Positions 3,475-61,192 of a stretch of 64,000 nt of DNA are shown here, one piece after another. Location: positions 56,792,001 through 56,856,000 of the forward strand of contig NC_086378.1 of assembly GCF_036588685.1 (NCBI RefSeq). The letters run 5' to 3'. The stretch comes from Mytilus trossulus. Lineage: Eukaryota. The notes beneath the pieces were generated by a model. The model searched no databases. It had not been told where the DNA came from and saw only the letters and a program-made list of their open reading frames with translations. Made by a program: the position numbers and the translations under genes. Position 1 is the first letter of the stretch. Every line of letters begins with the position of its first letter.

Positions 3475-3538
3475 AGTCTTGTGTAGACGAAACACGCGTC
3501 TGGCGTATTAAATTATAATCCTGATACCTTTGAAAACT
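3475..3538 (+). mobile_element. 5'-truncated hammerhead-ribozyme element (3' half only)
   Basis: GTCTtgtgtAGAC-GAAA-CACGCG-TC-TGGCGTA followed by the family 3' end ...TATAATCCTGATACCTTTGA; CTGATGA is missing. Confidence 0.75.
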
Positions 3539-4904
3539 GATAAAGCTTGTCGAAATATCTACCGTAAAGGTAAAGACATATCAAGCAAGAACATAAGGAT
3601 ATACATAAAAAATTTGGGAAAAAAAGAATGGTACCGAGACCATCAAAACTGAATGGGAATATATATATATTTAATAATGAACGACATTAAATTAGACCAA
3701 ACTATTGTAAGCTGCTTAACAATATAAATATAGTTGAAAGACAATCCTAAATAAACCAGTTAGCTCTAAAAATACGACTATCATCCATCGACCAATATCA
3801 GCTATAACTTAATTTTTTTCCATTTAAAACTGTTGTACGCTGGAACGACCGAGAGAGAAAAAAAAATGCCATACACGCATAGAATAAAATTCCGAAGGTT
3901 TTAAGGCAGCATTAACCGACCACAAGCGCGACTAAGTGAGCTGTCAGTCCCGTTGCATCTATAGAGGTCCCGTGGATTCTGCTCCTTACCGAAACACATA
4001 CAATAAGTTAGGCTCTTTATTGTTTTTGTAAAACGTCCATTGTTGTGGTTGTTTCCTTTTGAATGAATAAGTTGCTAGTAATATCATTTGTGAAGTTTTT
4101 TTTTTTTTTAAAGTATTCAATATTTGAAGTTATTTCTTATTGATTTATGACCTTATTTATTAAATCAATTTACCCGGATTTGTCGGAAAGGAATCCATCT
4201 CATGTAGGTAACCGTCAACAACAGATTATTAAAAACTAGCTTTTTTAAAATCTAAATTGTCTCGTTTAATCCACTTTAAAAATCCGTATTATACAAATAA
4301 CAGTGTTAAAAAATTTGGACATTTTTACACTTCACCGAATACCAGTGAACTGATTTATATATTCTATTGATTAATCTATGTACCAAACGCAATATACGTA
4401 TGGTTTTATATTATAGAATTATAATGACATATAAAGAAATAATCACAGTTAGTACCGTTTATTTCATCGCGTTTAATTTTCTTAAAAAATACCCAAATAA
4501 GAGTAATTTTATAGCAAACTGAACAAGAAAATTAAAAGAATTGTGAACGAGTGAAATGCACAGGAAAACAAAACCATGTTGGTTATTTTTTGGACATATA
4601 ATTGCAAAATATAAAAAGTTAAAATACCACAAATTATGTTATTTTATTTTTTTATAATGCTTTAATTTAACTCGAAAATTATTACACCGTATGCGTTTCT
4701 AATGAAGGAAAACTGAAGGAGCGTGTACCAACAATGCTCATTAAAAACGTAGCAAGTTCAATGGTCTGTAATGTCCCAAGAAGGTGTATGTTGCTATTGC
4801 TACTGCTCTGACACTGGGTAACCACTTACACATTCTACCTGGAACAGTAATTGAAGAGTGGAACAGAGTGTCCACTGGGTAAGTAGAACAGAGTGCGCGT
4901 GTGT

Positions 4905-5835
4905 CACTGAGTGAATGAGCGGGTGTGAGTGAGTGAATGAGCGGGAGTGAGTGAGTGAATGAGCGGGAGTGAGTGAGTGAGCCGGAGTGAGTGAGTGATG
5001 TGAGTGAGTGAATGATGTGAGTGAGTGAATGATGTGAGTGAGTGAATGATGTGAGTGAGTGAATGAGTGGGTGTGAGAATGAGCGGGTGTGAGTGAGTGA
5101 ATGAGCGAGTGTGAGTGAGTGAATGAGCGGGTGTGAGTGAGTGAATGAGCGGGAATGAGCTGGTGTGAGTGAGTAAATGAGCGGGTGAGTGAATGAGCGG
5201 GGTGAGTGAATGAGCGGGTGAGTGAATGTATGAGCGGGTGTCAGAATAAATGAGCGGGTGTCAGTGAGTGAATGAGCGGGTGTGAGTGAGTGAATGAGCG
5301 GGTGTCAGTGAGTGAGTGAATGAGCGGTTGTCAGTGAGTGAGTGAATGAGCGGTTGTAAGTGAGTGAGTGAATGAGCGGGTGTCAGTGAGCTGGTGTCAG
5401 TGAGAGTGAATGAGCCGGTGTCAGTGAGTGTGTGAATGAGTGGGTGTCAGTGAGTGAGTGAATGAGCGGGTGTCAGTGAGTGAGTGAATGAGCCGGTGTC
5501 AGTGAGTGAGTGAATGAGTGAATGAGTGGGTGTCAGTGAATGAGCCGTTGTCAGTGAGTGAGTGAATCAGCGGGTGTCAGTGAGTGAATGAGCCAGTGTC
5601 AGTGAGTGAGTGAATGAGCGGGTGTCAGTGAGTGAGTGAATGAGCGGGTGTCAATTAGTGAGCGGGTGAGTAAGTGGGTGCCAACATTCAGTGAGTAAAC
5701 AGTGTCAATGAGTGAGCGTGAGCGGGTATTAGTGAGCGGGTGAGTGTCAGTGAGTGAGCGGGTGAGCGGGTGAGTGTCAGTAAGTGCGAGCGAGTGAGTG
5801 TGAGGTGAGTGTAAGGTGTGTGTGAGCGTGCGAGT
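4905..5835. repeat. complex (GAGT/GAAT/GAGCGGGTGTCAGT)n minisatellite
   Basis: About 900 bp of units built from GAGT, GAAT and GAGCGGGTGT(CA/GA)GT, with strong G/C strand asymmetry. Confidence 0.95.
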
Positions 5836-6205
5836 AAGTTGTGAGAGATAGAGATGAGACAGTCAGGATAAGAGATGATAGAGATAAATGTGAATGAATG
5901 TGAGATATAAGAGCTGATAGAGAGAAATGAGAAAGAGGAGTGAATCGTCATTGAGCGCACACGTCATGCTTGAGCGAAGAACTTGCATGAATCTGAGAGT
6001 GATTGTATGAGTGAACGAACGAAAGAGCGTGTGCATAAGAATTATTAGTATTGTTGAATGAGAGATTTTATTAAACGAGAGAAACTTTACTTGAGAATAT
6101 AATGTGATTGTGTGATCAGACAGGTAGATAAAATAAAATAAACCATGGACTGGTTGGTTAATAAATAACTGAGGTCAGAGTGTGGAAAAGGAAAGACGGT
6201 ACTAC

Positions 6206-9200
6206 CACTGGGGTAAAGCTGATGACCGTAACTGCATTCACGGTCATCCCAAGATATCGGACGAAAAATTAGGTCAGTATTTGTATTGTCGGTTAAGGTG
6301 TTTCTACATCATTATCTTTACAAAGCATACATTGGTACGATGTAAATTTATAAAAGATTCACACGGAAGTCACAAATCTCTACCGAGGAACGTATAGAAC
6401 GGGAAATTGGATTTGAAAAATTCGCTAAGATGACCGTAAATCATCTTTAAAATATTTTCAAGATGACCGTAACATATAATAAGGATGACCGTGATTGGTA
6501 AATTGATGACCGTAATTTCGAAAGGATGACCGTAATTTATAAAGGATGACCGTAACTTTCATAGTATAATCGTCATTTTTAAGAAATATCCGTATTTGTA
6601 TTACCTTTTTTGTATCAAATAATTAATAATATTAATCGTGTTGGTGTAAGACGTATTTATAAGACAACATTATCATAAAGGAAGACAAAAATAAGACTTG
6701 CTTCAAATACATGGTTTGTCATATGTAGCATCTAACTACAAGCCAAAAGAATTTTTTATTTCTGAGATTCCTATTAATTTTATATAATAAATACAGCTTT
6801 TTAAAAATGCCAAAAAGGCAATGGATGTACAGCCATTTATATTATATCGTTTCAACTACCATTACAGATGGTTTTTTTTAAAATTTATTTCAGATACGTA
6901 CATGTGTTATCAATTTTCCACTTGCAAGTTCACCTCATCTAATGTAGACAGCATTTTAATACACACTATAGACAATCATGTTGGTCCACAAACATTTAGT
7001 TTTAGGAAGAAAGTTTTGGATGAAAACACTGGTCATACTGCATATCGGTCCGTACATTTTGGAGTTGAATTTACAAAACTTAAAATGATGTTAGGAAAAG
7101 GTTATAAGCCAAATATAAATTTAGAAGAACATGTTTTTTTAAATACTCCGACCAAACTAGTGAAGGTGAGCTCCAGCAAAATAAATCCTTAAATAGTCTT
7201 GTATAAATAGCGAATTTTAAAGGGGAGCCTTGTAAATTGTATAAACAGAAAACAAAATTGTTTTTTTTTTATATATCAAGACAAATCAATATTTTATTCT
7301 GCTCCTCTGAACCTATACACATGGGCTCAATTACCGGATATTCATAATGTTTAAGGTTCATCTGAATGAATTGAAAAATATTGCCGTTTTTACACACACA
7401 TATCTATTAAGAGAACAGACAAACTGATGCATCTAGGAAAGCGTAAGGACTATGTACCGTGTTACTTCAATGCTAAACATATGGAAACTTTATAGAAAAT
7501 CCATCCTTGTTCTAACATATTTGGCAATTTGATGACGGATAGATATAGGATTATTGCATGCAGTGCTAGCATTGATTTCCTTAAAAACAGTTTATTAATG
7601 TAGTTATTTGTTAGAACAAATAAAAATATGGACCAAATCAAGTACACCTTTTAGGGTGTACTCGACTTTAGTTACTCTGCACGAGGTATTTTGAAATTTA
7701 CAGGTTGGTTAGAACTTTTTGTAAAAAATAAACACTAGCACATCATAGAAAAGCAAGCGAGTAATCTATGTTTCAAATTTTATTACAAAAATCTCTTTAT
7801 TAAAGGCTGTTGATTTTCTATAAAAATCTTGGTTTATTTGCCACAAAGTACTCTTTTTCTATCAAATGCTAGGCAACAGTAATTAATTATGCCTTGCATC
7901 AAGTTTCCCCCTATAGTATATGTTTAAAATGGACTGTATCTATTATACATTATATCTGTAGTTTTGATACAATTGATGTTTAAAAAATTCGTACAAAAAT
8001 GGCTACAGAAGGGTACATAAACCTTAAAGCATGGCAGGACCTTTAGATATGTAAAAGTTATATAAAGTCTATGTTTGTGAAAAAAACAAACCTAACTTAC
8101 CTGGTTTTCGAGGTGCATTTTTTTTAAATATGCAGAAGATAGCAAAATAAACAGACATACGAGTTTCATTTGATACGGTCCACTCAGTTACACAGTTAAA
8201 TTCACCTATTGTTTGCAGGTGTCTATTGTCTATAGTGTCCATTTAAATCACAAGAGTGCACACGCTGAAATGTCTCGCCTTCTTTACTAATCATAGATAT
8301 TATGTTGATAGACCAAATATAAAGCTTTATTACAACTGTCACATAAACTTAACATTAACCAAGAAAACAAAACATTTATCAATGAAGCATGAAAATGAGG
8401 TCAAGGTCAGATGAACCATGCCAGGCTGACATGAACAGCTAACAATTCTTCAATTCAACAATTATAGTTCACTTATTGCTTATAAATTCAGAAAAACAGA
8501 CCAAAACACAAGAACTTAACACTGAGCAATAAGCCGTGAAATGAGGTCACGGTCAAATTAAACCTTTGAACAGAAATATAGATCATAAAATATTTCCATA
8601 CACCATGCAAATATAGTTGACCTTATGCATAAAGTATTAGAAAAATAGACCAAAACTCAAAAACTTAACTTTGACCACTGAACCATAAAAATGAGGTCAA
8701 CGTCAGATGACACCTGTCAGCTAGACATGTAAACCTTACAATCATTACATATACCAAATATAGAAGACCTATTGCATATCGTATAAGAAAAACAGACCAA
8801 AACACAAAAACTTAACTATAACCACTGAACCATGAAAATGAGGTCAAGGTCAGATGACATCTGTCTGCTAGACATGTACACCATACAATAATTCCATACA
8901 CCAACTATAGAAGACCTATTGCATATAGTATAAGAAAAACAGACCAAAACACAAAATCTTAACTATAACCACTAAACTATGAAAATGAGGTCAAGGTCAA
9001 ATGACACCTGCCAGTTGGACATGTACACCTTACAGTCCTTCCATACACCGAATATACTAGACCTATTGCTTATAGTATCTGAAATATGGACTTGACCACC
9101 AAAACTTAACCTTGTTCACTGATCCATGAATTGAGGTCGAGGTCAAGTGAAAACTGTCTGACGGGTATGAGGACCTTGCAAGGTACGCACATACCAAATA

Positions 9201-9999
9201 TAGTTATCCAATTACTAATAATAAGAGAGAATTTAACACTACAAAAACTTTTTTTTCAAGTAGTCACTGAACCATGAAAATGAGGTCAAGGACATTGGAC
9301 ATGTGACTGTCGGAAACTTCGTAACATGAAGCATCTATACACAAAGTATGAAGCATCCATGTCTTCTACCTTCTAAAATATAAAGCTTTTAAGAAGTTAG
9401 CTAACGCCGACGCCGCCGTAGCCGCATCACTATCAGTATGTCGAGCTTTCTGCAACAAAAGTTGCAGGCTCGACAAAAACTACTCACAACATCGATTATA
9501 CTATTTACTATCATTTTCATATAAACTCAAAATACGTCAAAAAGTTAAAAAAAAGAACAAACCGAGCCCCTATTGCGACAAACTCAACAAAAAACAATGT
9601 ATACAAGTATGGATATTTCTTTCAATTGACGGTAATCCTTTTAAATTTAGTAATTCTTTATAAATTACGGTCATCCTTAACAATTTACGGTCATCTTTTA
9701 ACCAATTACGGTCAGCCTTGTTATGAATCGCTAATCCTGTTACGGTCATCTCGATTACGATTTACGGTCATCCTAGCGAATTTTTCAAATCCAAATTCCC
9801 GTTTTATACGCGTTCCTCGGTAGAGATTTGTGACTTCCGTGTGAATCTTTTATAAATTTACATCGCATAAAAAGTATGCTTTGTAAAGAAAATAATGTAG
9901 AAACACCTTTAACAAACAATAAAAATACTGACCTAATTTTTCATCCGACATATTGGGATGACCGTGAATGCAGTTACGGTCATCAGCTTTACCCCAGTG
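6206..9999. mobile_element. non-autonomous DNA transposon, CAC termini, ~240-bp TIRs, 5-bp TSD (Transib-like signature)
   Basis: TIRs start CACTGGGGTAAAGCTGATGACCG (first 47 bp identical, similarity to ~240 bp); ACTAC at 6201-6205 and 10000-10004; subterminal GATGACCGTAA arrays at both ends; no transposase ORF. Confidence 0.88.
8250..9478 (+). mobile_element. HINE/pearl-like non-autonomous element with internal ~147-bp tandem array
   Basis: Starts ACAAGAG; repeat marker ATGAGGTCAAGGTCA at about 8395, 8541, 8691, 8838, 8985, 9131, 9280; terminal hairpin TGTCGAGC...TGCAACaaaaGTTGCA...GCTCGACA followed by an A-run. Confidence 0.75.
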
Positions 10000-11573: not shown

Positions 11574-11574
<1 letters not shown>

Positions 11575-12115: not shown

Positions 12116-14502
12116 TATTTAAAATGCATATTAGAAAAACGTCGTCAACAATCAAGTAATTGATTTACTAACTTACTCAGCAACTAAGCAAGGGCTATTC
12201 TCCTTAATTTACCTTGAATGGGTGAGAAAATGTCAAGGGGACTATTAAAATCCACATACCTGTTATCGACGCGGTCTTAGGACTAGTAGACAATATTGAG
12301 TATCATCCCATCAAAACAAATAAAAAGAGGTTAAGATAATCGAGACTAATTATCAAAAAAATTGTTACATTTTCAGTTTCCTTTCTTTTATTTCATAAAG
12401 TTTGATTGGGAAATTATAATTGTATCATGGTAAATGTTAGGTATTATCCATTTACAATAATGATAAAAAATCTTTTTAATCTTATAATTATTTATTCTTG
12501 TAGTATTTGGGGCACATTGTATTCCGTTTTGAACTTGTCTACATAACACTCGCCAGTTAAACGGACAGTGGTTAAAGCATCCTATCTAATGGAATGGACT
12601 CTTGATTTGTGCGAACATTTTATAATCCTGGTATCTTTGATAACTATTTACAAGATGGCTCAGGACATAAAATTTCAATCAAGGCTTTATATAGTTTACT
12701 ATCAGTTGATATATGAAAAAAACATACCTCCTTTTTGGAATGGACATTTACTAGGCGTCTGTTTTGTATTGACGTCTGATGCCTTTAGATATTCTTCCAC
12801 ATCTTCACATTTAATTCGACTAGAAATGCCAGTAGCCTCCCTCCACGGAGTGCTCATGTCGAGTCGAGAATACCATTTAAGAGAATAAATTCCATTTGTG
12901 AATTCTTCATCTAAAATTTGGTAAATGAATAATGAGCTTGTGTTAACTATGCATTTAGCTGTAAAAACTTTCATCCATTACTCGATGCATGTAAAGAACA
13001 GACAGGCAAGATATAGGACGAAATAGAGGGACAATAGTTCAAACAATGCAGAGGGTATCATTTCATTCCAGCATGGAACATGCAGTTTCCTTTACCGTGC
13101 CTTGCAACCGTAAAAACAACGTCAACTTCGTGAAATGTTACCTTTTCAATATTTTTTAACATTCAGTGTGATTTTAGTCATATACATTATAGCTCACTAC
13201 CACCGTCATTGATCATATTTTTGATGATTTATTTTATGAAACACCCCTCCTGGATACATGCACAGTGTTTACGTGTATAGTAAAAGCTAGCATTTTGAAC
13301 TCTTATTTGAGACGTGCGTCAAGATTTTATTGCGTAGGAAGACAGCTTCTTTGCTGTGGGGTGAATATCATATTGTTGGGGAAAAATAATTACATTGTTG
13401 AATAATGAAGAGCACTGTTTTGGTGAATAAAAAGTTGTTAATGAATAACAATTATGAATATTGTTGGTGAATAAAATGTACATTGTTGGCATATGGAAAG
13501 AATTATGCAAGTTAATGATTATAACAGTTTTGGCTAACAAATAGCATTGTGTGGTTGAATAATATTATTCAATTTATTGTAGAGGTATAGGTGGATGCAC
13601 ATGTAGGTCGAGCAATCACGTTAAATAAAATCTGACAACCATGATATACGAAAGGAGTTGAAGGTGGCGTTAAACACTAAAAAGTATGGTATCAATCGAA
13701 TAGATGTTTAAAAAATGAAGTAGTGTAATGGATTCCTGTCATTGGAGTCGGTATGTTTGATAAATATTTTAGTCATTTGAGAAAGGAAATGAATGAAATC
13801 CGCCACACGATCGAGGTTATTAATGTTAACTGTTTTTACATTGTCTTACTTTTTATCGTTCCTATAATTCTATGTAACCTGAGTAACAATAGGGTACCAT
13901 TGAAAACGTCTACCGACGAAACATGTATGCAAATTTCAAATTATACTTACTAAATGTGAAATCAAAGTTAAGTGTCAGAACGTCTCCAGATTTAGGAGAT
14001 ATTGGACTCCATGTTACATTTATTTTGGAATCAGCTGCAAAACACAGTTACACCATTAAAAAAGTAAACAATAAAAAAAAATCAGCTACACATGAAAACG
14101 ACTAATTGTGTGAAATTTTCGGCCACACAGCTGTACAGAATCTAACTTCCAAAAAAGAGAATGTGAAAATAAAATGACTATATCATACAAAAGACTCCAT
14201 ACATTTTAATTATATAGAACTACCCTTTTACTCTGATCATACTACATCTCCTTATATTATATAACTATAAATGTATGGGTTTTGCTCATTTTTGAAGGCC
14301 GTATAGAGTCCTATATATAGTTGTTTACATCCTGGTCCGGTTTGTCTCTGGTGTGTAAGTGTCTCATTTGCATTCACATCCCATCTCATTTGTATGAGTA
14401 TTCTGAATGATGAAGGTGGTTATTAACGATATGGACTATCCGTGAGGGTCTTGAACAGTCGGTGTGTGAAAACAATATTTCTATATATTAATGTTAAACT
14501 TA

Positions 14503-15519: not shown

Positions 15520-15705
15520 TCCTTCCAGAGCACATGAGATCATTCCCAGTTTTTGGTGGGGTTGATAACGATTGCTTAGTTTTTAGTTTTCTATGTTGTG
15601 TACTGTGTACTATTGTTTGTCGGTATGTCTATATTTATAGCCATGGCGTTGTCGGTTTATTTTCGATCTATAAGTTTAATGTCCTTCTGGTATCTTTCGC
15701 CTTTC
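15520..15705 (-). repeat. dispersed repeat (AAAGAGGGACGAAAGATACC family)
   Basis: Similar to copies at 45322-45490, 51428-51575 and 50281-50415. Confidence 0.6.
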
Positions 15706-16347
15706 TTGTACAGTTATTTCACCAAAGGATTGGCTGTATTCTGTTAAACTTTTTAACCAGACACCAGCATGTTATTCATCGTAAAATATACTTACCGACG
15801 GAAAAAAGAAGAAAAATCAGAAGAAAGACTAGTGTTTATATTTGACTATAATTTACTTACAACTTTGATGTCTTTGGGAGAATGTCGTCTAATGATTTGG
15901 ATTTTCCACTTCCTTGTTAAATTTCTACACTTTCGGTGTATTTCATTGTTCAGTACAATGAACAAATCCCAAATTACGTAAAGTAATAGTAGACAAGGAA
16001 GAGATATATTGTATGGCAATTTCATGGATGAATGGCCAGCCATTACGTAGGAAATATTTTTTTTTTTAGAAAATTTCAATTCGTTAGTTAACCCAATCCT
16101 ACATGTTACAGCTAACCAAATCGAGGAAATAACTTTTTAACTCGAAAAAAAAAGAGAACTCGACAAAAGACGCTACTAATAAAACAAAAGTTGTTTCTGG
16201 TCCATTTCTCTTTTTGAACAATAAAGTATTATCAAAAAACTAAAACTAAAGTAAAAATGATAAGTTATCATAGTGTTTAACTGCGATGTATACTATATGT
16301 GATGTAGAAAACAAAATACAGTATACAAAACATACAAGATTGATAAA

Positions 16348-16460
16348 CAGCTATCAAAGGTACCAGGAATTGAGTACAGACGCGCGTTTCGGCTACAAAG
16401 ACTCATCAGTGACGCTCAGATCAAAACAGTTTTAAAGCAAAACAACTACAAAGTTGAAGA
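16348..16460 (-). mobile_element. hammerhead-ribozyme element (core intact, stem I 3' strand partly deleted)
   Basis: Minus strand GCGTCA-CTGATGA-GTCTttgtAGCC-GAAA-CGCGCG-TC-TGTA at about 16375-16415. Confidence 0.8.
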
Positions 16461-17501
16461 GTACATGTGAAAACCAGTGACATTTTTTGGCAATTGACGA
16501 GAACACCCTTGTTCTAAATGTGCACACACATGATGACTCGAATTAGTTTTTGTGTCAGGATAGACTGCGTTGGAACTGGAAAACTACCGCTTGTCTCATA
16601 TCTGTTCCCATACTTGAGATGTGTTCGATTAGCAAAAGATGGTAAAAGGTTTAAAACCTTTTATGTTGATTCTTTAAAACATAAGAATAAAAGGGCAGCA
16701 TTTATATAGTCAGGATTTTAATTCGTCAAAATTAACTCCCTATTATACACCCCTTTTTTTCAATCATTAAAATGGAACTTATCCCAATTCAGACTTAACA
16801 TTAAAATCAAGAATTACAAAACATCAAGATGTAGAACCACAATAAAAGTACTGTTTCTTAATCTTTGGTTTATCGAGTGTGTGAAGGTATCATGTGTTTG
16901 AGTCAATACACCATTTTTCTTTCAAACGTATAGGACAAATGAACAGATAGTTTAATCTACAAAGTGTCATTACTTCATTTTTGTTTGAGTGTAACATAAC
17001 AAAGTAAGCAATGGACAATCAGTTTACTTATGTTAACCAATACAGCGAATAAAACTGTTATTTTCAACACACGTGTTAAAAACAATACAAGATTGAGAAA
17101 AACTCAAACCAGCAATAACATTAAATTAAGCAGACATTGAAATAATAAAAAGTCGAGTATTTCGAAATAATATTTACATAAATAAGTATAATATTTTGGA
17201 ATGTTTTAACCTAATCATAATTTAATTATTTTTGATAGCGGATTATTTACTTAAGTGATATTAACTGAACAATAGACATTTAAAATATTAAATCTCAATA
17301 TATAACTGCTTCTTATTGAAAGTGTTTTCAGAAACAGGATTGAATTATAATGTGTACAGCTGGATTAATGTATGCGCTTTTAATCGCTGCATAGGAAAAA
17401 TTTGTTCAGCAATATGTCAAATTTGTTATATTAAAAATCTATGTTGGAACTGAAATCTCAAAACAAAATGTAAATCACGATTCCGCTAATGTTATCCAAT
17501 C

Positions 17502-18665
17502 ATGAATTATTCAACGCCAGTAAAAAAACTGTCAGTGACGTCTTTTTTGTCACCTTTTCAACAGAAAGGAAGAACAACAAAAGTCACATTTGAATCGTTA
17601 CCGAAACCACGAACACAATCTCGTTTTATGTTTGATGATTTTGGACATAGTCAGATTAATGGAAACCCGAACAGATTTAAGTCTGTACCAAGTTTACGTC
17701 CGTTTGCAAAATCTCTGGAAAATTCTAACACAAACGAAATTGAGGATGATTTTAAAACAATGGCGACCTTCAATACCCACATTGACCTACCAAGGGATGA
17801 TGATGAAGATTTAGCATATACACCGTACCAATATGAAGACGACGATTTCTATGATATCAGACCTCAAACATCTTACCTAGCTCAACCATTTGCAAGCCGA
17901 AACAGAGGGTTAGAGAGTATTGCTGAGTGCAGAACTCCAACTTCATCGTCGTCTGCTTCATCGCGAGGTGGTGACATCACGCCTGACTCACCTGAATATT
18001 ATCAAATTCTGGATGTAAAACGTGAAAAGGTCAAACCAAATAGCAAGGAAAACGGTTCGAAATCTGCGCCTAGTGATTCTAAACTGTATTCTCTTCCAAG
18101 GATTCAACAGGAACAAGTTGTAACACCAGTCAAAGTTAAATCAATACTATCACTCCGAGCGAACGAGAAGCTTCCAAATATAGCAAATGCTTTTCGAAGA
18201 ATTGAAAATTCAGAAACTTTCTTGGCCCATTCAAAATTTAGTTCTGGTCAAAGTAGGGCGGAATCCGTCGAAAGCATCAGGACGCCATCGACATCTAGGC
18301 ATCTTCTGTGGTCACGTGGATCTATTATGTCTGATGGAGGTTTTCCAAAAGCAAGATCAGAAACAAATATGACAAAATTATCTTTTCAATCGGAACCGAC
18401 ACCAACATTTCAAAGTTTGTCTCCTCTTAATAAAGGATTGAACAATAAAAAGAAAGTTCGTAAACTCAGACGTAAACCGGCAACTAAATTTTACGTCCCT
18501 TATAGATCCTTTTTAGAAAGTGTTGCAAGTAATCGGGATGATGAGGAAAAGAAAAAGTCAAAAAAACATATAAAAAGTGCCAAATTTACACTTTATTTTC
18601 CGTCTCTTCACAAAAAGTGTACTATTTCGCCCATAATAAAGGAAGGAAATTGGTGCCAAAAATAG
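17502..18665 (+). CDS. uncharacterised Ser/Pro/Lys-rich, probably disordered protein (387 aa, single coding exon)
   Basis: 1164-bp ORF in very AT-rich DNA, candidate upstream acceptor gtgttttcag at about 17330; basic NLS-like clusters KKKVRKLRRK and KKKSKK; no family recognised. Confidence 0.8.
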   Translation: MNYSTPVKKLSVTSFLSPFQQKGRTTKVTFESLPKPRTQSRFMFDDFGHSQINGNPNRFKSVPSLRPFAKSLENSNTNEIEDDFKTMATFNTHIDLPRDDDEDLAYTPYQYEDDDFYDIRPQTSYLAQPFASRNRGLESIAECRTPTSSSSASSRGGDITPDSPEYYQILDVKREKVKPNSKENGSKSAPSDSKLYSLPRIQQEQVVTPVKVKSILSLRANEKLPNIANAFRRIENSETFLAHSKFSSGQSRAESVESIRTPSTSRHLLWSRGSIMSDGGFPKARSETNMTKLSFQSEPTPTFQSLSPLNKGLNNKKKVRKLRRKPATKFYVPYRSFLESVASNRDDEEKKKSKKHIKSAKFTLYFPSLHKKCTISPIIKEGNWCQK

Positions 18666-44047: not shown

Positions 44048-44644
44048 AACCATCTTCATAACACATGGAGAGAATATAAAAAGCAGGGGAAATGATTCAT
44101 TGATTCTTTAGATTGTAATTTCTTGGTTCCATAGTTGGTGATTTTTTAAACACCAGAGACTAGCGATTTTCATCAAAACTTTTGGCAGCCAAAGTACTAG
44201 TAATAACATATTTTGAACAAATATTCCTGACGGATTCGTTTTGTCTCTTACTAACGAAATACAAGAAATCGTCCACTTTTTTGTCTTCCTAACAGCCACC
44301 TGTGAACAAGGAGGATATGCAAATATACTGATACATCCTCACTATCAATTGAGAATACTAAGGAAGAAACTTGTTCTTTTATTTTACAAATGAGATATAT
44401 AAACGTCAAAATATTCTCTTGTAGAGATATTTACGAGGGTTGTCCGTAAAGTTTTGTGGACAATCTCAATAAAATATTATTTACCCATTCGAAATAAATA
44501 AAACAAGTATTTAACAAATTTCATGATTTACTGATTAAGTTTACAAAACTTTATTTCAGTACCTGCTAATTCGTAAGTTATAATCAACATAAGACAGAGG
44601 CTGACGATTCATTACCATGTTGATTTCGTAAACGAACATTCATT
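44048..44644 (+). repeat. segmental duplication, copy 1
   Basis: Near-identical to 63410-64000 (a few SNPs and small indels, including a 6-bp indel). Confidence 0.95.
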
Positions 44645-44790: not shown

Positions 44791-46275
44791 AACAAATATG
44801 TATTTAGAAAATATTCAAATTTAACAAATCCCAAATGAATTGACTGAAAGTTACTTTCTTTTGTAACTCTGTAAAAACACAAGCCTGTAAGATTTTTCAA
44901 TATTTATAAATTTGAATATTATGTACTTAGTTGGATGGTAAGATTAAATGCGGACATTATCTGCTCTTTGGTCGTGTTGTTGTCTCTGTGACACCTGATT
45001 TAACCCCATATTTATTTAAGATTGATGGATTTTGTTTGTGTATTTGTTTTTCATATTTGATGGGTTTGGTATTCCAAGCGAACACATACTAACAACAACA
45101 AAAATATACAATGCTACAAACCAATTTAAACACCCAATTGAATAATTAGTTTTTTAACTATAACTTGAAACTAAAAAATGTGAAATGATTTGAGTCTGAA
45201 AAAAGACAAAAAGAAAGCAACATCAAAAGAGAATTTCATATCAATAGCGAACACTGTCAGGATTGATCAAACGAAAGACCAACCGTGGGGAGATTTTATT
45301 TTAGCAATCCTGACACCTTGAAAAAGAGGGACGAAAGACATCAGAGGAACAGTCAAACTCACAAATCGAAAACAAACTAACAACGTCATGGCTAAAAATA
45401 AAAAAGACAGACAGACAAACAATAGTACACATGACACAACATAGAAAACTAAAGAATAAGCAACACGAACCCCACCAAAAACTAGGAATGATAAAAAGAA
45501 ATAAGAAATATATCTTATGAGATAGGCATAACTAATTTTTCAATGCACGAATATTTTTTGAAATAAATAAAGTGCCGAATTTCAAAACATTTACTCGGCT
45601 TACATAATAAGGTATAAGAAAAGCTATTCAGACTTAATCGGTTTAGGTCTGCCAGTAAGTTTAAAAATGTAATTACTTTGAAATTTTTATATTAGTTCTA
45701 AATAACCTGCACCGTTCAATGAGTCGAGCTCAATATTTTAAATTACATTAATCCCAAATGCATTACATTGTTCACTTATCACGTTATCCTTTATGTTTTT
45801 ATAAAAAACAGAGTTGAACTAATGACTTCAGCAAATGAAAAAAGAACATTTCGATTATATAATAATTATACAAAACCACAGCCTACTAACTTTGCTGAGA
45901 ATGCATTTTTGATTATCAAATGGGCGGAATTCTATAACTAGCTCATGCATGATAGTTTTCATCCAACAGTATCGATGATAAAATTGAAAATGGAAATAGA
46001 AATGTGTCAAAGAGACAACAACCCGACCAAAGAAAAAAACAACAGCAGAAGGTCACCAACAGGTCTTCAATGTAGCGAGAGATAATATATAAATTGAGTC
46101 TCAATTTGTGTTTCATATAGTCAATATTGTTTGTAATTATATTTGAATGCTTATTGTTGTTTATAGCGTTATAATAGTGCTTTTTATCTATTCAGGTGTC
46201 TGCTTTTCAAAATTCTCTTTCGGAGATATATCTAAGTTCCAATAAGCATTAAATACAATCTGACAATTCATTACC

Positions 46276-49200
46276 ATGTTGATTTCGCAAACGAAAGATG
46301 ATTTTTCTTTGGTGTTTTTGTGTGTGATGTTTGCAATGGTTATTGCAGAACTGAATGTTCATAAATATGTCTTTGTAACTACAAAAGACAGAAGAATTCT
46401 TCCTAGCAGTACATCACTCATAAAGCAAAGAACACTATCTCTAGCTGCTTGTGCGTCATTGTGCTCCATACATTATTGTTGCTATGCTAGTTATGACACG
46501 AAAACCGAACACTGCTACTTAGATGAATCTTGTTGTCCAAAAAATGAGTCTTCAATAGATTCACTTATATTAAAGAAAAATACAGGTAAGTTTGTTGTTT
46601 TACTTGATCTTGAAATAATTATTATCTCTTGTTTTATAACGGGTTGATGAAAATAAAGTATAAATATGTTTACAATCCCGGTGGTTGCCTTTAAACATAT
46701 CAAAGAGATGGACATAACATCTTTTAACCTGTATTTTTATACGTTTTATAAGTTTAAGCCATGCCCAAAAAGCAAATCTCGATTTGTATTTCTATTTGTA
46801 AGTATTGTAATACCAGTAAAGTCAGCAATGTTAAGCCACAGATGTACCCGGTATCAAAATGTGTTATCCCAAAAATTCTGGACTCCGAGAAAAATTCTAA
46901 ATGGAAAGAACCTAATCAAATAGCAAAACCAAAAGCTCGAACACATCAAACGAATATATAAAAACTGCTATATTTCTGACTAGGTACAGTCCTTTTCTGT
47001 TGATGGATTTAACTTTATTTTATCAGATTGTCTTTTAAGGTCTTGTGATGTCTAATTGATGTCTATCGTTTTTAATGAAAAGCTTTTAGATGACAAAATT
47101 TTATATTCTGTCTTGTGTAAGGGTAAGAGAATTTCAACGTTTGGATTGCTTATTAATTCATGGAATAAAATACTCATCCACCCTAAAACATCTTATACAT
47201 AAAACTTTTTACTGATGTTTAATCAGTCACAAAGTTTAACATGGGTAAGTCAGGAATGCGTGCCTTTTTATCAGGAACAATAGACTACGAGTTACTCTGA
47301 GGACATTTTATGCCCCACGTACGAAAGTAAAGGGGCATTATTTTTCCCTTCTGTGCAGCGGTTCGTTCGTTTGTTCATTTGTCCGTTCGTTTGTTCTCCC
47401 GTTCGTCCGTTCGTCCGTCTGTCCCGCTTCAGGTTAAAGTTTTTGATCCCTGATTCCACGGTCCACTGAACATAAAAATGATAGTACAAGTTTATGTTAA
47501 AGTTTTTGGTCAAGGTAGTTTTTGATGCAGATGAAGTCCAGTCAACTTGAAACTTAATATAAATGTTCCCTATGATATTATCTTTCTAATTTAAATTCCA
47601 AATTAGAGTTTTCACCCCATTTTCATGGTCCACAGAATATAGACAATAATAGTGCGAGTGGGACAATCGTGAACTATGGACACATTCTTGGTTTTTTTTT
47701 TAATAAATTACTTTCCTTAGTTTTTTAAAACTTTCTTAGATGGATTTTTGAAAATATGTTGTGAAATTATAAATGAAAATGCTTAAATATGGCTACTTAC
47801 TGAAAAAATGTTATTAAAATTGAGAATGGAAATGGGGAATGTGTCAAAGAGACCACAACCCTACCATAGAAAAAAAAAACAGCAAAAGGTCACCAACAGG
47901 TCTTCAATGTAGCGAGAAATTTCCGCACCCGGAGGCGACCTTCAGCTGGCCCCTAAACAAATATATACTAGTCCAGTGATAATGAACGCCATACTTATTT
48001 CCAAATTGTACACAAGAAACTAAAATTAAAATAATACAAGACTTACAAAGGCCAGAGGATCTTGACTTGGGACAGGCGCAAAAATGCGGCGGGGTTAAAC
48101 ATGTTTGTGAGATCTCAACCCTCCCCCGATAAATCCAGCCAGTGTAGAAAAGTAAACGCATAACAATACGCACATTAAATTCAGTTCAAAAGAAGTCCGA
48201 GTCTGATGTCTGAAGATGTAACCAAAGAAAATAAACCAAATTACAATAATACATAAATAACAACAGACTACTAGCAGTTAACTGACATGCCAGCTCCAGA
48301 CTTCAATTAAACTGACTGAAAGATATTTACATGTTTCATTTGTGTAGAAGATGTCACTAGTGTTGTGCTAGTTCAATCAGTTCTAAGGTTTTCATTGCCA
48401 AAAACTGTGACATATTTGAAGCCAGATGTTCGTTCAAGTTCAATTAAAATACGCTTTAATATAGGACTATATAATTGACGATTAATTCAGGAGTTTTAAG
48501 ATGCAGTTTCAATTGATTGGAAAAAAATAACATCGATTCACATCATTGATTTTATTGTTAAGTAAGATAATGTAATGGTGCTTTTGAAAAACAACTTGTT
48601 TAAAAAACTACTATTATGTGACATACATTGAACGACGATGTATTGCCACTCGTTACTTTTCGATCGAATCTACGAAAAAAGCTAAAGATTTTTTTTCTGA
48701 AACGGTAAAAATCTTACGACTAGACAAACGACTGACGAATGTTAAGGGAACAGTATCCTGTTATTTGATCAATGTTCTGTAGTTATTTTATTCTTTACTT
48801 TCAGTTTCATTCGCATGTCCAAACAGATGGTTAAAGTACGAAAATCAATGCTACTACTTTAGCGATGAGGAAAAAACGTGGGACCAAGCTAGGGTTCGTA
48901 TTATGTTTTTTTATGGACATGATATATTGCTACTGACATTATTACATCTCTTTATATTGTTGGATTTTGAAAGAGGTAAAAACTGTAGTTTCATTTATTA
49001 AAATAAAATAAAGATATGAGACTTATATACATCAGACATGCATATAATCTAATATTTATTTTCTAGTTTATATTGTAGTAAGAAAATATGCCTCCCATTA
49101 TTCGTAAACGTTATATGTTTAATATGTTTGCAAGGTAGTTGACGGGTTTCAATATACCGCTACCAGTGATGATAGTGATTGCCAGTGATATAACAAATAA

Positions 49201-52200
49201 GTAAAATATAAAAAAAAATGGCTGATATCAACATGCTCTCGGCAACTTTGGTATCTGTCGATTAGGATTTCACCAATAGAATATTTGACTTATAGTTATC
49301 AATTTGATACTTATGTTTTGATCCAATGATTTAATTATTAACATTGGATGCCATGGACAAATAATTAAGACAAAAGTCGTACATAACACCCGATTATTAT
49401 TTATAAAAGATATATGATACATTCTGAATAGTCTAGGAAAATAGAAAATGTATCTAAGAAGCTTAAGAAACTACAAGGAAGGAAATAATTGGATTCACTT
49501 CACGTATACAATCTATTTATATATACTGGTTTATATTTCATAGTTTTGCACGTTTATTGGAAGCATAAAAATTCGAATCTTTACATGATATACAGCAATA
49601 CGAATGACCAGTGAAATCTTGTAATACCATTTGATGTTTGTTATTATAGCTGATGTGCGAGCATAATGGAAGTAGGCTAGTAGAAGTCGGTTCTAGTTGT
49701 GAAAACGACTTTTTGAAGATGACAGCAGCTGTATATGACAAATGTATGTATACTTAATGCAATGTACTTATCAAACATGACATTTTTAATAATGAATATA
49801 TACAAATATATATTGCAACGTCATGAATCACCAAGAGAGTAACGGTAACGGTTTTATTTTTTTTCATGTACAGTAAGACCATTCCCGATTTGTTAAATTT
49901 GCATAAATGGTATTTTATTAAGTCATTAACATTTTGTTTTCAAAAGCTAAAACATTTTGGTGAAAAAAATATTGATTGCTGATAATTAATCACGTATATC
50001 ATTAAGTGTATTTCATACACATGGTGTAAACAATTTTTCTCAGTGTACGGATATGAATATCCAATGAATTAATATGTATTCATACGCTAATAAAATGTAT
50101 ACGCATCATTTCTTGTTATTGTTTAGCTGTATTGATTATAAGAATACAATGCAAAGATGACCCTTGTTTGTTCTTGACCATGTTTACCATATTTAAATTG
50201 CATCTGTAATAATCTACATTATTCTCATAATGTAAAAATAGTTTGTTGTTTTCTAAATGCATTAACTCTGAATAACTCTTAGTCTTTAGTTTTCTATGTT
50301 GTGTCTCCTGTACTATTATTTGTCTGTTTGTCTTTTTATTTTTAGCTCTAGCGTTGTCAGTTTATTTTCGATCTATGAGTTTGACTGTCTCTTTGGTATC
50401 TTTCGTCCTTCTTTTGTAGCTTACTGGCTAGATGGAAGTGACAGACAAAGTGAAGGTTCTTGGATGTGGGTCAGTAGTCTAACAAAATTTGCATTTACTG
50501 ATTGGTATGCAACAGAACCAAGTAACTATGCAGGAGAAAATTGTATTCGCATTACGATGCACTTAGACTTCAAATGGGGGGATGCCTTATGTAGCAACCA
50601 ACTCAGATTCATATGTGAAAAAAGTAAGTTTATATTTAAAGTGTATTTACTAATTTTTTTACCTGAAACCTTCAACGCTTGATAAAATTTGTACGTGCAG
50701 GTTAACAATTTCTAACAACCATAAGATAACTACACGTAAATCCTTTTAAGATCTGAAGTCAATGATCAATCAGTGTTTCACACGGTTTGATAATAAAAAA
50801 TACAAAAGATATTATTTTACTTACTTACTAAAAGGAGGATCGTCTTACCTGTCCATCACACTTGAGACAACTCGCGGAATTTGGGTTGGTTTGAGTTTTG
50901 TATACATTTGTTTGTCTTTCGGTCTCTTTTTTCTTTTTTGTTATGGTGTTGTCAGTTCATTTCCGAATTATGATTTCGTATGTCACTTTGGTATCGTTCA
51001 TATCTCTATTTTTAGCCACAATTTCTATGGTTCTCGTAGGTTGCTTGCAAAATAAATCATCAGAATATAAAATTTTGAAGAATTTATAAAGGAGGTTTTA
51101 ATGATTTTTGCTAGTCTTGTTGTTTTTTCGTTCTTTCTGTCAAATTTTCGGAATCGTCTGGTTTTGTAAATCAAATGTCGTTTAATTCTTTCCCTTCTAT
51201 TCCTATTTTACATTTTAATTTTATTGCTATAACTACAACTTGGTCAATACTCTCTATCTGGGAATTTGATGTACTCGACGGTATCATTTTGAAAGTAGTT
51301 ATAATAGCGGTAATAACATGACAGTATGTTACATGTATATATTATATTAACGTCAATATCTTTGTTGCTGGGCTATAAATCTACAAGATAATTACCGACT
51401 GAATAACCAATAAAGGCAACAGTAGTATAAGAGAGGGACGAAAAATACCAAAGGGACAGTCAAACTCATAAATCTAAAACAAACTGACAACGCCATGGTT
51501 AAAAATGAAAAAGAGAAACAGAAAAATAAGCAACACGAACCCCACCAAAAACTAGGAGTGATCTCAGGTGCTCCGGAAGTAGTATACTATGAATCGATTG
51601 AGAAAAAAACAAACCCGTTTACCAAAATTAAACCGAGGAAAACACATCAACTGTAAGAGGAAAACTACGAAACAATAGAAAAACTGAACAGTGAACAACC
51701 CCCCCCCCCCACACTGCAGCACACAGAGAAATGAAACATAAGATAACAATTTCTATTTTCCTAATATGGTATAGGACATTTAAAGAAAAAAATGGTGGGT
51801 TGTACCTGATTGTGTGCCAAGCAAAACCTTGCATCTTTATGGCAATGTAACATATAACATTAAAATGACACCATTACATGACATGAATATAGGAAAAAAA
51901 ATGCAAGAACATTCAGGACAAAGAAATACACAAAAACACAATACAACAGTACATTTCGACATGCTAACGACAGAATGAAAACCAACACGTAAAACATCAG
52001 GCATGCACATATGGATTTCATTTTTTCTTAATTTGCTGATATAATGCTTTTGAAATCATCTTACACCGAGAAAGGTAAAACTTTCGAGCAAAACTCATTT
52101 TCTGTGTTCCAATTTTCGTCTATACTTTTGATTCTATTTTGTGTTATCACCTTTTTTACATAATAATTTTTTTTTGTTATTGAATTTCAGTTGTTCCATC

Positions 52201-52225: not shown

Positions 52226-52687
52226 TACTTGCTACTTGATTGACTATATAAGTTACCTGTTTTTTTTAACAGGAAATTAAAAAAATAGCATATAATTGAT
52301 ATTCATGTTACACCGAAGTGCTGACTACTGGACTAAAGCATACCTAATTTCACTTTTTTTCTATACATTTCTTGTATGTTACTTTATTTACGTCTAAACG
52401 TTCAATATATTTTTCTTTCAGGGTCGAGTAATTAAATTGGAAAGGATAATACCTAGCACATGTTGCAGCACTTTTTAATGTCATTGAAAAGGTTGTGATG
52501 TCCGAACGAATGCCATGCATTATTTTTGAAATGACGGTTTAATGGTTGATGTTTTGTTTTGTTTGCTTTTACTGAAGTGTCATAAATTATGTTAAATATC
52601 ATTATTACAATCATGAAATCCGACCATTGTTTTCACGTTAGGATGACATAATTTCTATTTCTACGATTGATGTATGTAGTTCTGTCA

Positions 52688-58029: not shown

Positions 58030-59090
58030 CACTGATTTACTTGAGGACAGGTATGACCCTTAGATAACGTTCATACGGTACTGCTTCTTAATTCATCAAG
58101 AGAAATGCCCCTAGACACCGTTCATATAACGCTGCTTTTTAAATGTTCGAGGTTTATGACCCCTAGATAGAATTCATAAACCACTGATACTTATTTTTTC
58201 CATGGACATGATCTCTAGATTAAATTTTTTAAAACAGTGGTACTGAGTTATACGAGAGGGGTATGATCATTGATATAATACTGGTCCTGTGCTTTTCTAG
58301 GGATTTGACCATTAAATAGTGTTCATCTAACACGGGTTCTAGTTTTTCTAGGGATATGATCCCTCGATAAAGTCCGCATATTACTGCTTTGGGCTGTTTA
58401 AGGTTTTCTGTATGACTCCTAGATCAAATTCATATACCACTGATACTTAGTTTTCAAGGGATGTGACCCCTAGATAACGTTTTTCAACACTGGTAGTGAG
58501 TTATTTGAGGGGTATGCCCACTAGATAGATAACGTTCATGTAACACTGTTATTGTGTTTTAAAATGACTATGACTCCTAGATAACGTTCATTTAACACTG
58601 TTCTTGATTTTCTTAAGGGATTTGAAACCTAGATAACGTGCATACACCATTGATACTAATACTTGAATTTACTTTTATAGGGGCGAGATCTTTCTAAAAC
58701 AAAGATCAAAACGTAAAAATAAAGATTCACGATTTCAAAAAGTCCAAGTAACAAAATGTGCCAACTGACGAAAGCAAAAGGGGAACTTCATTTAGTGAGC
58801 ATCTAGTATGTGCGTTCCTACTACTAGTTACTTGGACAAACATACGTGTTCCCACTTGATGTTACTTGGAAAAGCAAACTTGTGTCTCAGTTTGATTTTG
58901 TTAGAGAGTGTATAACATCTAGATAACGTTCATATACCACTGGTCTTGAGTTTCTAGAGGTGTATTACCCCTACATTAAATTAATTAACCACTTGTACTT
59001 GGTGTTTCCAAAATACGATCCTTCTATAACGTTCATAAAACGCTGGTTTTCAAGTGGTATGATCCATATATAACGTGCATATTAGCACTG
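58030..59090. repeat. degenerate ~47-bp tandem repeat
   Basis: Recurrent GGTATGACCCCTAGATAACGTTCATATACCACTG motif, interrupted at about 58670-58900. Confidence 0.75.
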
Positions 59091-59581
59091 CTACCCACCT
59101 ACGATGCATAATATTTTCTGATCTGTGTGTCTATTCTTCTGTCCGTTCGGTTAATCGTCTATTCGTTCGTCCGTTCGCCCATCCGTTTGCCCGTTTGTCC
59201 GTTCGTCCCACTTCAGGTTAAAGTTTTAGGTCAAGGTTGTTTTGGATTAAGTTGAAGTCCAATTAACTTGAAACTTAGTATATCTGTTACCTATGGTATG
59301 ATCTTTCTAATTTTAATGCCAAATTTGAGATTTTACCCCAATTGCATGGTCCAGTGAGCGTAGTAAATGATAGTGCAAGTTTAAGGTTAAAGTTGTTTGT
59401 CAAGGTAGTTTTGGATGAAGTTGAAGTCCAATCAACTTAAAACTTAGTATACATGTTTCCTATGATATGATCTTTCTAATTTTATTGCCAAATTAGAGTT
59501 TTACCTCAATTTCATGGTCCACTAAACATAGAAAATGATAGTGCGAGTGGGGCATCCGTGTACTATGGACACATTCTTGTT
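59090..59581 (-). mobile_element. pearl/HINE-like element with two ~170-bp internal units
   Basis: AGGTTAAAGTT...GTCAAGGT...GTTGAAGTCCAA...GATAGTGC twice; (CGTT/CGTC)n; end GGACACATTCTTGT. Confidence 0.75.
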
Positions 59582-59649
59582 TTAGAAGTGTCTACTCTTG
59601 ATCACGTTCATATAATGAGTTATCAAATGAACCAGGATTATAATTTAGT

Positions 59650-59693
59650 ACGCCAGACGCGCGTTTCGTCTACATAAGACTCATCAGTGACGC
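59650..59693 (-). ncRNA. minimal type I hammerhead ribozyme, intact (element ~59630-59787)
   Basis: GCGUCA-CUGAUGA-GUCUuauguAGAC-GAAA-CGCGCG-UC^-UGGCGU; stems I and II pair fully. Confidence 0.9.
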
Positions 59694-59842
59694 TCATATC
59701 AAAATATTTATAAAGCCAAATAAGTACAAAGTTGATAAGCATTGATGATCCAAAGTCCAAAATGTTGTGCCAAATACGACTAAGGTGATAAGACTTGAAT
59801 TGACTTATTTTAAGGTGTAAACCCCTACATAACTAAAAAAAT

Positions 59843-61007
59843 ATCACATCACCAACACCAACAACAATAGTAGCGAATCCTGCCAGCGAACACCATCAAA
59901 CATTTCTGCTCGAAATTTTCTGTTAACGGACAAACAACTGAACCTGAAACAAAAATCACCAACCGTGAATATACCAACACGAATTTACAACGGATTCATT
60001 GCGAAGAACTCCTGACATAATAACTCACATTTTTCAGAAATCCACCGAAGGTATACAAATTTAAGCTTAACACTTACTTTTAAATGATTAAAATAGAAAT
60101 CCTGTCACCTATACCCTGTTTTCAAATATTGTACCATATTGTTTTTATCTTCAAGACTATTATTCTAAACATATAAGATCATAATACACTTAATATCTCT
60201 ATTTGTGGGGTAATCTTACTTTTGCAATGCAGTCAAATCTGTATCCTACAATAAATGCTAGAATAATCTCATGTTTCATTTGTATTGAGTGTTTTTACTA
60301 GAATTTCTGATAAAATTTGACCAATATGTCTCATTGGTGTTTTACCCGAGATATGAATATACAAATATACAAATTTGTTTGTTCTGTTTATGTTATATTT
60401 AACTTTGCCATTAAAGTTTTGCATGCCACAAAACCAGGTTCAACCCACCATTTTTATTCCCCTTTAAAAATGTCCTGTACCAAGTCAGGAAGATAGCCAA
60501 TTTTTATATTATTGTTCGTTTCTGTGTGTGTTGCATTTTAACGAGAGATATTCAGATAAGACGTGGAACGGTACTTGTCTATCCCAAATTCATGTATTTG
60601 GTTTTGATGTTATATTTGTTATTCTCGTGGTATTTTGTCTGATGCTTGGTCCGTTTCTGTGTGTGTTGCGTTTCGGTGTTGTGTCGATGTTCTCCTCTTA
60701 TATTTAATACGTATCCCTCGGATTTAGTTTGTTACCCCGATTTTGTTTTTTGTCCATGGATTTATGAGTTTTGAACAGCGGTATACTACTGTTGCCTTTA
60801 TTTACAGTTGTTAATAAGATTTTACAGCACACAACTTTGTCTGACGGAATCGTTCTAATTGATCTAGTCACTATACGGAATCATCTTAGATTGTTCATGC
60901 GGGACATCACACGCAAATCTTTTACAACCAAGAAGAAATCTATTGAACAATCTGACGATGCGGCGGCCTCAGCAATTTCAGAAGAAACATATCGACGAAC
61001 CGTTTGA
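59843..61007 (+). pseudogene. truncated paralog of the membrane C-type lectin (exons 5-6)
   Basis: 59843-60050 aligns to exon 5 with +4/-1 indels and a stop; 60807-61007 aligns to exon 6 with a large internal deletion removing most of the TM (CGGAA microhomology); ends SAISEETYRRTV* as in 39385. Confidence 0.85.
60383..60799 (-). repeat. dispersed repeat inserted in the pseudogene splice acceptor
   Basis: Splits TTTGTTTGT...TTTACAG, which is contiguous in the intact paralog at 38896-38912. Confidence 0.75.
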
Positions 61008-61192
61008 AATAGTTATCAAAGGTACCAGGATTATAATTTTATACGCCAGACGCGTGTTTTGTCTACATAATACTCATTAGTGACGCACAGATCAAAATAG
61101 TTATAAAGCCAAACAAGTACAAAATTTAAAGAGCATTGAGGACCCCAAATTCCAAAAAGTTATGCCAAATACGCCTAAGATAATCTTTTCCT
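61008..61192 (-). mobile_element. hammerhead-ribozyme element with core mutations, inserted right after the pseudogene stop codon
   Basis: 61043-61086 reads CUAAUGA and AAAA; family 3' end GGTACCTTTGATAACTAT. Confidence 0.75.

Follow-up and report, generated by a model that had tools for sequence, protein, structure and literature searches.

Retrozyme copies in the window

The stretch analyzed here, referred to as the window, is 64,000 nucleotides (nt) of genomic DNA from the mussel Mytilus trossulus (NCBI RefSeq assembly GCF_036588685.1, contig NC_086378.1, positions 56,792,001 to 56,856,000). A sequence-only reading of the window had proposed that it holds eight dispersed copies of a retrozyme, a non-coding retroelement that carries a type I hammerhead ribozyme; our analysis concerns these copies and the element that may mobilize them. 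All eight are present on the strands given in that reading, together with two further fragments at 12620-12652 (+) and 52261-52334 (-). Alignment of the copies bears out a shared 3' end with variable 5' truncation, and the two kinds of end that had been distinguished are both real; we refer to them as subfamilies A and B. The window contains single truncated copies only, with no tandem units. Their density is usual for the genome: a 664-kb sample chosen by position only (the window, 200 kb on each side of it, and 100 kb from each of two other contigs) holds 51 pieces, which cover 9,584 of 664,000 bases.

The only copy in the window that keeps the hammerhead core together with all three stems lies at 59618-59789 (-), a 5'-truncated subfamily A copy of 172 nt with 93% identity to a monomer from a real array. 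Its type I hammerhead (59650-59693, -) is matched both by our core pattern and by Rfam family RF00163 (33 bits, E 2.4e-4), and cleavage is predicted after the C at 59656, in a GUC triplet. Among the other subfamily A copies, that at 61007-61192 (-; 89% identity) has a mutated core and ends exactly at the family's 3' terminus (ACTATTT), and that at 23881-24110 (-) has an intact core with one mismatch, in the last pair of stem II. The copy at 16344-16461 (-) is predicted to be inactive; its core letters are intact, the 3' side of stem I is deleted, and stem II is broken by the loss of one pair. A 3' fragment at 3475-3538 (+; 92% identity) is truncated inside the hammerhead, without CUGAUGA, and the 33 nt at 12620-12652 (+; 97% identity) are a 3' tail only, ending at the family terminus. 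Subfamily B is represented by a copy with an intact core and one stem I mismatch (34121-34372, -), one with two core substitutions (34974-35125, -), and an old, degraded one (38367-38587, -; 68 to 74% identity) that has an insertion at stem II. The piece at 52261-52334 (-) is an internal fragment, 83% identical to monomer positions 98-174, in which only the last bases of the hairpin described below are present. The window copies are ordinary, mostly dead insertions of what is very likely a known family.

Hammerhead structure and conservation

Four intact cores had been counted in the sequence-only reading, and a core pattern (CTGANGA-N8-16-GAAA-NGCGCN-TC) matches four sites in the window (16379, 23914, 34169, and 59656; all minus) and none in 100 shuffles. 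The count thus stands for the core letters; when all three stems are required as well, it falls to the copy at 59.7 kb. Rfam Hammerhead_1 matches four of the eight copies, each below the gathering score of 34: 59650-59693 (33.0 bits), 23908-23951 (32.2 bits), 34163-34206 (28.2 bits), and 35017-35060 (22.2 bits). Units taken from tandem arrays score 31 to 33 bits, also slightly below that value. Stem II had been described as always kept, which is not the case, as it is broken in three of the eight copies (at 16.4, 23.9, and 61.0 kb). Nor is stem III minimal, as had been supposed: with two base pairs and a GCGC loop it corresponds to the Rfam Hammerhead_1 consensus and not to the one-pair form of Penelope-like elements (PLEs). 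The second pair of stem III is C-G in subfamilies A and B, U-A in subfamily C, and A-U in subfamily D, and in none of these four is helix III absent or reduced to one conserved pair, as in the minimal PLE-type hammerhead.

The core is conserved in excess of its surroundings, with 8 of 237 core positions differing against 334 of 3,658 other aligned positions in 25 A-type pieces. Stems I, II, and III change in pairs between subfamilies, including compensatory changes in stems I and II between A and C. When isolated hammerheads are folded, the hammerhead fold is not the minimum-energy structure, which says little about activity, and the folding stability of the whole monomer lies within that of its shuffles (z of -1.5 for the linear and -1.6 for the circular form). 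Action as a dimer had been suggested for this ribozyme. Dimer cleavage would be unnecessary, since in the accessible text of PMC7229834 a monomer clone of the Mytilus galloprovincialis retrozyme self-cleaved during transcription, at about 0.1 per minute, and the RNA accumulates as circles.

Tandem arrays and subfamilies

Tandem masters of the family were sought and found elsewhere in the 1.3-Gb genome. An exact 37-nt core gives 10,441 matches, which lie mostly in arrays of period 354-355 among the matches listed, and a looser intact-core pattern gives 26,572 (control, 0). The period is 354-355 nt in subfamily A, about 365 nt in B, and 349-350 nt in C and D, spanning 349 to 368 nt across subfamilies at a GC content of 38%; metazoan non-LTR retrozymes are expected to form head-to-tail repeats of 150-450 bp with a GC content below 50%. 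Arrays exceed 100 units, and one is at least 39 kb long. There are at least four subfamilies; C and D (loci L304-L306, L158, and L187), which are absent from the window, have distinct hammerheads with AUC and UUC triplets and an unchanged hairpin and terminus. Read by eye, the 354-nt monomer shows no structure of the long terminal repeat (LTR) type; no dedicated scan for an open reading frame (ORF) or primer-binding site was made. By size, organization, and host, the repeat family is very likely the published Mytilus non-LTR retrozyme.

A fixed 3' end and evidence of insertion

Positions are numbered here from the cleavage site. In the 664-kb sample, 34 of the 51 pieces end 33 to 52 nt past it (+33 to +52; binomial p 1e-30). 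The 5' ends are spread over the unit, with only 2 of 51 in that interval, and only 4 of 51 pieces have their 3' end within 5 nt of the cleavage site itself. The fixed end lies directly before a bulged hairpin of 64 nt that occupies +45 to +108 of the monomer. All nine arrays whose 3' end was read stop 2 to 6 nt before this hairpin. Subfamily A termini fall at -6 to 0 relative to the hairpin start in 30 of 30 cases, these having been selected by a pattern that had to match as far as -6 or -8 and that left out read-through; in subfamily B, 25 of 30 end at -5 to +3 and the other 5 read through. The A end pattern occurs at 4,769 places genome-wide. End counts for subfamilies C and D were not used, as they are mixed with cross-subfamily matches. 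The stop point is in a U/A-rich linker whose predicted probability of being unpaired is 0.76 to 0.93 over the 9 nt before the hairpin, and the hairpin pairs have predicted probabilities of 0.86 to 1.0 in the circle. Since cutting leaves a linear monomer whose end is the cleavage site, these copies must have been made from a template continuous across it.

Two loci document insertion. The terminal coding exon of a probable membrane protein at 38849-39385 (+) has an 83% paralog at 60845-61007, and the 61.0-kb retrozyme copy lies antisense directly after the stop codon of the paralog; the other site, in the paralogous stretch 39223-39385, holds no retrozyme and represents the empty site. Elsewhere in the genome, an array of 15 units interrupts an older frame of a Naiad, a type of PLE, with AAA (3 nt) shared at both junctions.

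A candidate Naiad partner

The interrupted frame led to a candidate for the Penelope-like partner that the sequence-only reading had called for, a Naiad family with a 3370-bp unit. It has an open frame of 1000 amino acids in which a GIY-YIG nuclease domain lies N-terminal to the reverse transcriptase (RT) in one ORF. Pfam places GIY-YIG at 135-172 (E 0.034) and RVT_1 at 645-854 (E 1.8e-4), both under the curated cut-offs. The frame carries a CxxC region at 94-102, YVGET at 148, CTC at 431, GPKY at 466, DKA at 558, and YIDD at 844, in keeping with the motifs that define Naiads in the accessible text of PMC8557442 (an upstream Cys motif, CxC, GxKF/Y, and DKA). The 3370-bp units are in tandem, with an upstream partial 3' copy, which is the organization of a pseudo-LTR (pLTR). 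No hammerhead core was found in any of the three Naiad families examined. By an end pattern built like that for subfamily A, with 7,011 places genome-wide, 30 of 30 termini of the candidate fall at -6 to -2 before its own hairpin, and the geometry recurs in a second Naiad family, with alignment ends at -12 to +3 in 20 of 45 cases. A 10-nt pattern for another Naiad family gave the same count as its control (823 versus 823). The start of locus L332 is nearly identical to that of the published Naiad_Mgal, in agreement with the genus of the host.

Naiad 3' ends also occur in the window. Fragments of the candidate partner lie at 45322-45492 (-; 92% identity, unit positions 3197-3367 of 3370, ending just before the hairpin position) and 50279-50415 (+; 88% identity, unit positions 3230-3367), and older Naiad-type 3' ends at 15521-15710 (+; 79% identity, unit positions 3179-3368) and 51420-51579 (-; 76% identity). 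Outside the window, one Naiad (L186, G000:C5:60,420,500-60,423,500) has its 78-nt start, made up of a 5-nt linker, the hairpin, and 9 nt, reiterated at least ten times before the ORF, and at another locus (L188) the repeated unit is 145 nt, the end of the 3' untranslated region plus the hairpin; reiterative copying by RT or later DNA slippage could account for either. Two of 10 full-length Naiad loci (L092 and L087) meet retrozyme fragments at their 3' end, either as insertions into them or as direct neighbors, possibly a local target preference, with numbers too small to tell. Canonical PLEs at L325/L326 and L316/L330 carry hammerhead-like motifs just after the ORF, with a short stem III and a palindromic GCGC or GUAC loop.

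A hairpin shared by retrozymes and Naiads

The first 71 nt of the candidate Naiad match retrozyme positions 45-115 with 86% identity (E 3.7e-17), and this segment is the only significant match between the two units. Across two Naiad families and four retrozyme subfamilies, a 23-pair bulged stem-loop pairs in 161 of 161 cells, with 7 two-sided changes. None of 500 shuffles reaches 161 of 161, and slid controls pair in 35 to 52% of cells; as the structure was obtained by folding these same related sequences, the controls flatter it, and the two-sided changes are the real evidence. Pairing over 20 copies is 97.8%, and fold z-scores range from -2.1 to -4.2. The core CUGCUGGUGG/CCCCGAG is invariant, and the stems around it covary, in all four retrozyme subfamilies. 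Among the three Naiad families seen in the genome, it is the 3370-bp Naiad that the retrozyme outer stem fits. A pseudoknot between GCUGGU and ACCAGC was also considered; it pairs in 41 of 42 cells, but none of its pairs changes on both sides, its 5' strand does not vary, and the covarying outer stem is in competition with it, so that a pseudoknot reading of the shared domain is not favored, though a tertiary contact is conceivable. No Rfam family matches the hairpin at E values up to 5.

The hairpin core is also found in published Naiads. In the part of the PMC8557442 supplement available to us, 11 named Naiad consensus sequences and one without a visible name have CTGCTGGTGG...CCCCGAG near their start, some with a one-base change, in a file whose total of Naiad sequences was not counted; the outer stems of these published Naiads differ in sequence and still pair by eye. 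In the third Naiad family of the present genome, an extra helix is inserted at a bulge and the rest of the hairpin is kept. Two of the hairpin-bearing consensus sequences, Skow and Pfla, are presumably from hemichordates. Taken together, the comparisons indicate that the shared hairpin reflects common ancestry and selection on structure. The link between retrozyme and partner appears to be this separate hairpin and not the hammerhead. In sequence terms the retrozyme is a candidate Naiad-dependent, non-autonomous element, sharing with its candidate partner both the terminal signal and the position of the end.

Transcription and a proposed mechanism

The family is transcribed: in four raw RNA runs, 6,437 of 8.7 million, 7,237 of 8.3 million, 10,684 of 7.3 million, and 3,786 of 12.7 million reads fall on one monomer. 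Three of the runs are biased about 4- to 10-fold toward one strand over the hairpin half, which is the hammerhead-sense strand if the usual library convention is assumed. Sense depth across the linker is about 950 to 2,400 in three runs, and read ends do not pile up at either the cleavage site or the linker. Loose read ends with unrelated flanks do pile up at +41 to +43, as expected of dispersed copies within host transcripts.

Based on these observations, we consider it likely that the window pieces are 5'-truncated copies of a retrozyme of about 350 nt, written into new sites by the Naiad that shares its hairpin. The earlier proposal of a non-coding hammerhead element mobilized in trans is supported by the tandem masters and by the partner candidate; the trans-mobilization itself we infer. 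In the route we envisage, transcripts of the tandem arrays, which the abundant reads attest, would be cut into monomers by the hammerhead and circularized by a host ligase, as published for the M. galloprovincialis family. The Naiad protein would bind the 64-nt hairpin, as its covarying structure in both elements suggests, and its GIY-YIG nuclease may nick AT-rich DNA. From the 3' end released by the nick, synthesis would start in the unpaired U/A-rich linker, 0 to 6 nt before the hairpin, where the copies of both families end. Reverse transcription would then cross the hammerhead junction; a cut linear monomer could not have given copies that cross it, which leaves a circle or an uncut multimer as the template. 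Early stops would yield the dispersed pieces and long runs the arrays. The hammerhead may serve to provide a circle, in which the start point is always followed by the hairpin. On balance we also favor a broader proposal, that the Naiads of bivalves and hemichordates share a structured RNA, not described before, which makes reverse transcription begin immediately upstream of it, and that the mussel retrozyme is a chimera of this signal with an unrelated hammerhead, its circle serving as an endless template for a retrotransposon that has no ribozyme.

Several points weigh against Naiad-driven copying. The link between Naiad and retrozyme was drawn from sequence, and sharing a hairpin does not tell which enzyme acts today. 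Only 16 of 40 Naiad alignments in the 664-kb sample end at the terminus; the remainder include internal or diverged pieces, plus hairpin matches to retrozymes. Reads from the Naiad 5' region are scarce (mean depth 0 to 16 over the first 600 nt). No clear target-site duplication was found, only short AT-rich shared words of inconsistent length, for which no control was run, and the inverted 5' copy that is an optional hallmark of PLEs is seen in 0 of 51 pieces when opposite-strand neighbors within 150 nt are sought. The very long arrays (more than 39 kb) probably owe part of their growth to events in the DNA itself. The RNA reads do not separate circles from tandem transcripts, as back-joints also arise from tandem DNA, and the runs share a species label with records that hold the sequence and possibly do not come from the species of this genome. 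Assignment to the published family, whose mussel clones are MN642551-MN642576, was made on size, organization, and host.

The hairpin could instead be a relic of Naiad origin, with some other RT, from a hammerhead-bearing canonical PLE or a long interspersed nuclear element (LINE), priming at the U-rich linker simply because it lies unpaired before a stable hairpin. Canonical PLEs with a C-terminal nuclease and open frames are indeed present in the genome, some with hammerheads of their own; the linker has the required predicted openness (0.76 to 0.93); and the accessible part of Li et al. (2026) ties Xenopus retrozymes to PLE pLTRs. Yet in 18 canonical PLE loci, which sample this group without covering it, the hairpin is absent from the ends, the hammerheads of canonical PLEs (L325/L326 and L316/L330) differ in sequence, and the retrozyme matches in those loci are separate insertions. 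A relic would be expected to decay, whereas the hairpin core is invariant and its stems covary in all four subfamilies, and Naiad copies end at the same offset. We regard this explanation as unlikely.

It seems quite improbable, in turn, that the hairpin is or directs an RNA activity that cuts the linker, so that a linear RNA ending in a U-tract is copied by ordinary target-primed reverse transcription from its 3' end. Such an activity would give Naiads, which lack hammerheads, the other route to unit-length RNA that they might need; an invariant core within covarying stems resembles a ribozyme, and the ends are tightly clustered. However, the reads run through the linker at the depth given above with no pile of ends there, the hairpin has no Rfam match, an array of 15 near-identical units with a single end of this kind could arise only through repeated jumps between templates, and the accessible text of PMC7229834 reports no second cut. 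The lengths of the arrays, above 100 units, and the reiteration of the 78-nt Naiad hairpin unit at one locus, which indicates that short tandem growth occurs here, could point to a satellite that spreads at the DNA level, through recombination or rolling circles of DNA, and carries hammerhead and hairpin as passengers. This we consider highly improbable, given the combination of a fixed and a random end, seen both in dispersed copies and in arrays, the clean insertion into the older Naiad frame, the empty paralogous site in the window, and compensatory changes in two RNA structures.

Other features of the window

An abundant non-coding repeat of at least 530 nt, at 36408-36918 (+) and 47815-48324 (-), has a fixed U-rich 3' end and variable 5' ends; 23 of its 32 alignments in the 664-kb sample end within 36915-36923. 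No tandem read-through was found for it, nor any shared downstream sequence in 37 distinct flanks, and it therefore cannot be linked to the hairpin. Inverted arms at 6206-6567 and 9650-9999, about 3.1 to 3.6 kb apart, flank a 147-nt tandem repeat (8312-9309); the structure looks like a non-autonomous DNA transposon. A repeat of at least 450 nt, 98 to 99% identical between 44199-44644 and 63556-64000 (19.4 kb apart), is either a young mobile element or a recent duplication. There is an open frame of 391 amino acids at 17490-18662 (+). We tentatively take 20595-20909 (-) to be a glutathione-S-transferase-like exon and 50290-50679 (+) to be a C-type-lectin-like exon.

Comparison with known systems

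Two parts of this picture have been described already: the hammerhead repeat family, very likely, and a PLE origin proposed for vertebrate retrozymes, posted in 2026. The present family resembles the M. galloprovincialis non-LTR retrozyme of Cervera and de la Pena (2020; PMC7229834) in its type I hammerhead without most loop-loop tertiary contacts, its tandem units (350-390 bp there, clone Mg353; 349-368 here), its low GC content (38%), and its great abundance and high transcription; like that family, it probably has no ORF. From a draft genome, that study counted about 5,000 motifs, belonging to two families, whereas 26,572 motifs with an intact core and four or more subfamilies are counted here, and its accessible text describes no fixed 3' end, hairpin, or named partner, with 0 occurrences of "Naiad". 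The candidate partner resembles the Naiad clade of Craig et al. (2021; PMC8557442) in its N-terminal GIY-YIG with upstream Cys motif, its CxC, GxKY, and DKA motifs, its partial-tandem pLTR, its 3.4-kb unit, and its lack of a hammerhead; it is distinct from their Naiad_Mgal and Naiad_Mcor, to which locus L332 corresponds. As far as available to us, the main text of that paper has 0 occurrences of "stem-loop" or "hairpin", and the 5' hairpin is visible in its consensus sequences without being described.

In Poseidon, another PLE, reverse transcription starts internally and hammerhead cleavage is not needed in vitro (Frangieh et al., 2024; PMC11167929, accessible part). Genomic copies of Poseidon_Ac likewise end at an internal start, downstream of the hammerhead, and its targets are AT-rich; in the present case the proposed start is instead placed upstream of the ORF, in the U/A-rich linker that precedes the hairpin, and a non-coding parasite shares it. 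The vertebrate retrozymes of Li, Clavereau, and Pollet (2026; bioRxiv 10.64898/2026.07.22.740005) share terminal sequence with PLEs, and hijacking was proposed; the accessible part of that preprint covers 35 genomes with no mollusc, defines no signal or start site, and reports Naiad only in coral. In the mussel the partner lacks a hammerhead, which means that its present pLTR was not simply the source of the ribozyme.

According to a 2020 review, no motif points to the autonomous element that mobilizes animal retrozymes. Our literature search, with most subscription journals outside its reach, found no paper on the Naiad hairpin or on a Naiad-retrozyme pairing. Here, a motif, a named partner family, and a start predicted to within a few bases make the identity of that element testable with one protein and one short RNA. 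If the proposal is true, an animal retrozyme would have a named enzyme and start signal, and Naiads, which dominate many bivalve genomes, would have their first cis-signal. The roles of the parasite's parts would separate, the hammerhead making the circle and the hairpin recruiting the enzyme, and any small circular RNA with the 64-nt hairpin could become tandem DNA copies. The arrangement recalls pairs of short interspersed nuclear elements (SINEs) and LINEs with shared 3' tails, in which a non-coding parasite borrows its partner's RNA recognition signal. Unlike in SINE-LINE pairs, the retrozyme signal would lie just beyond the copied end, and would enter DNA only when copying passes the full unit.

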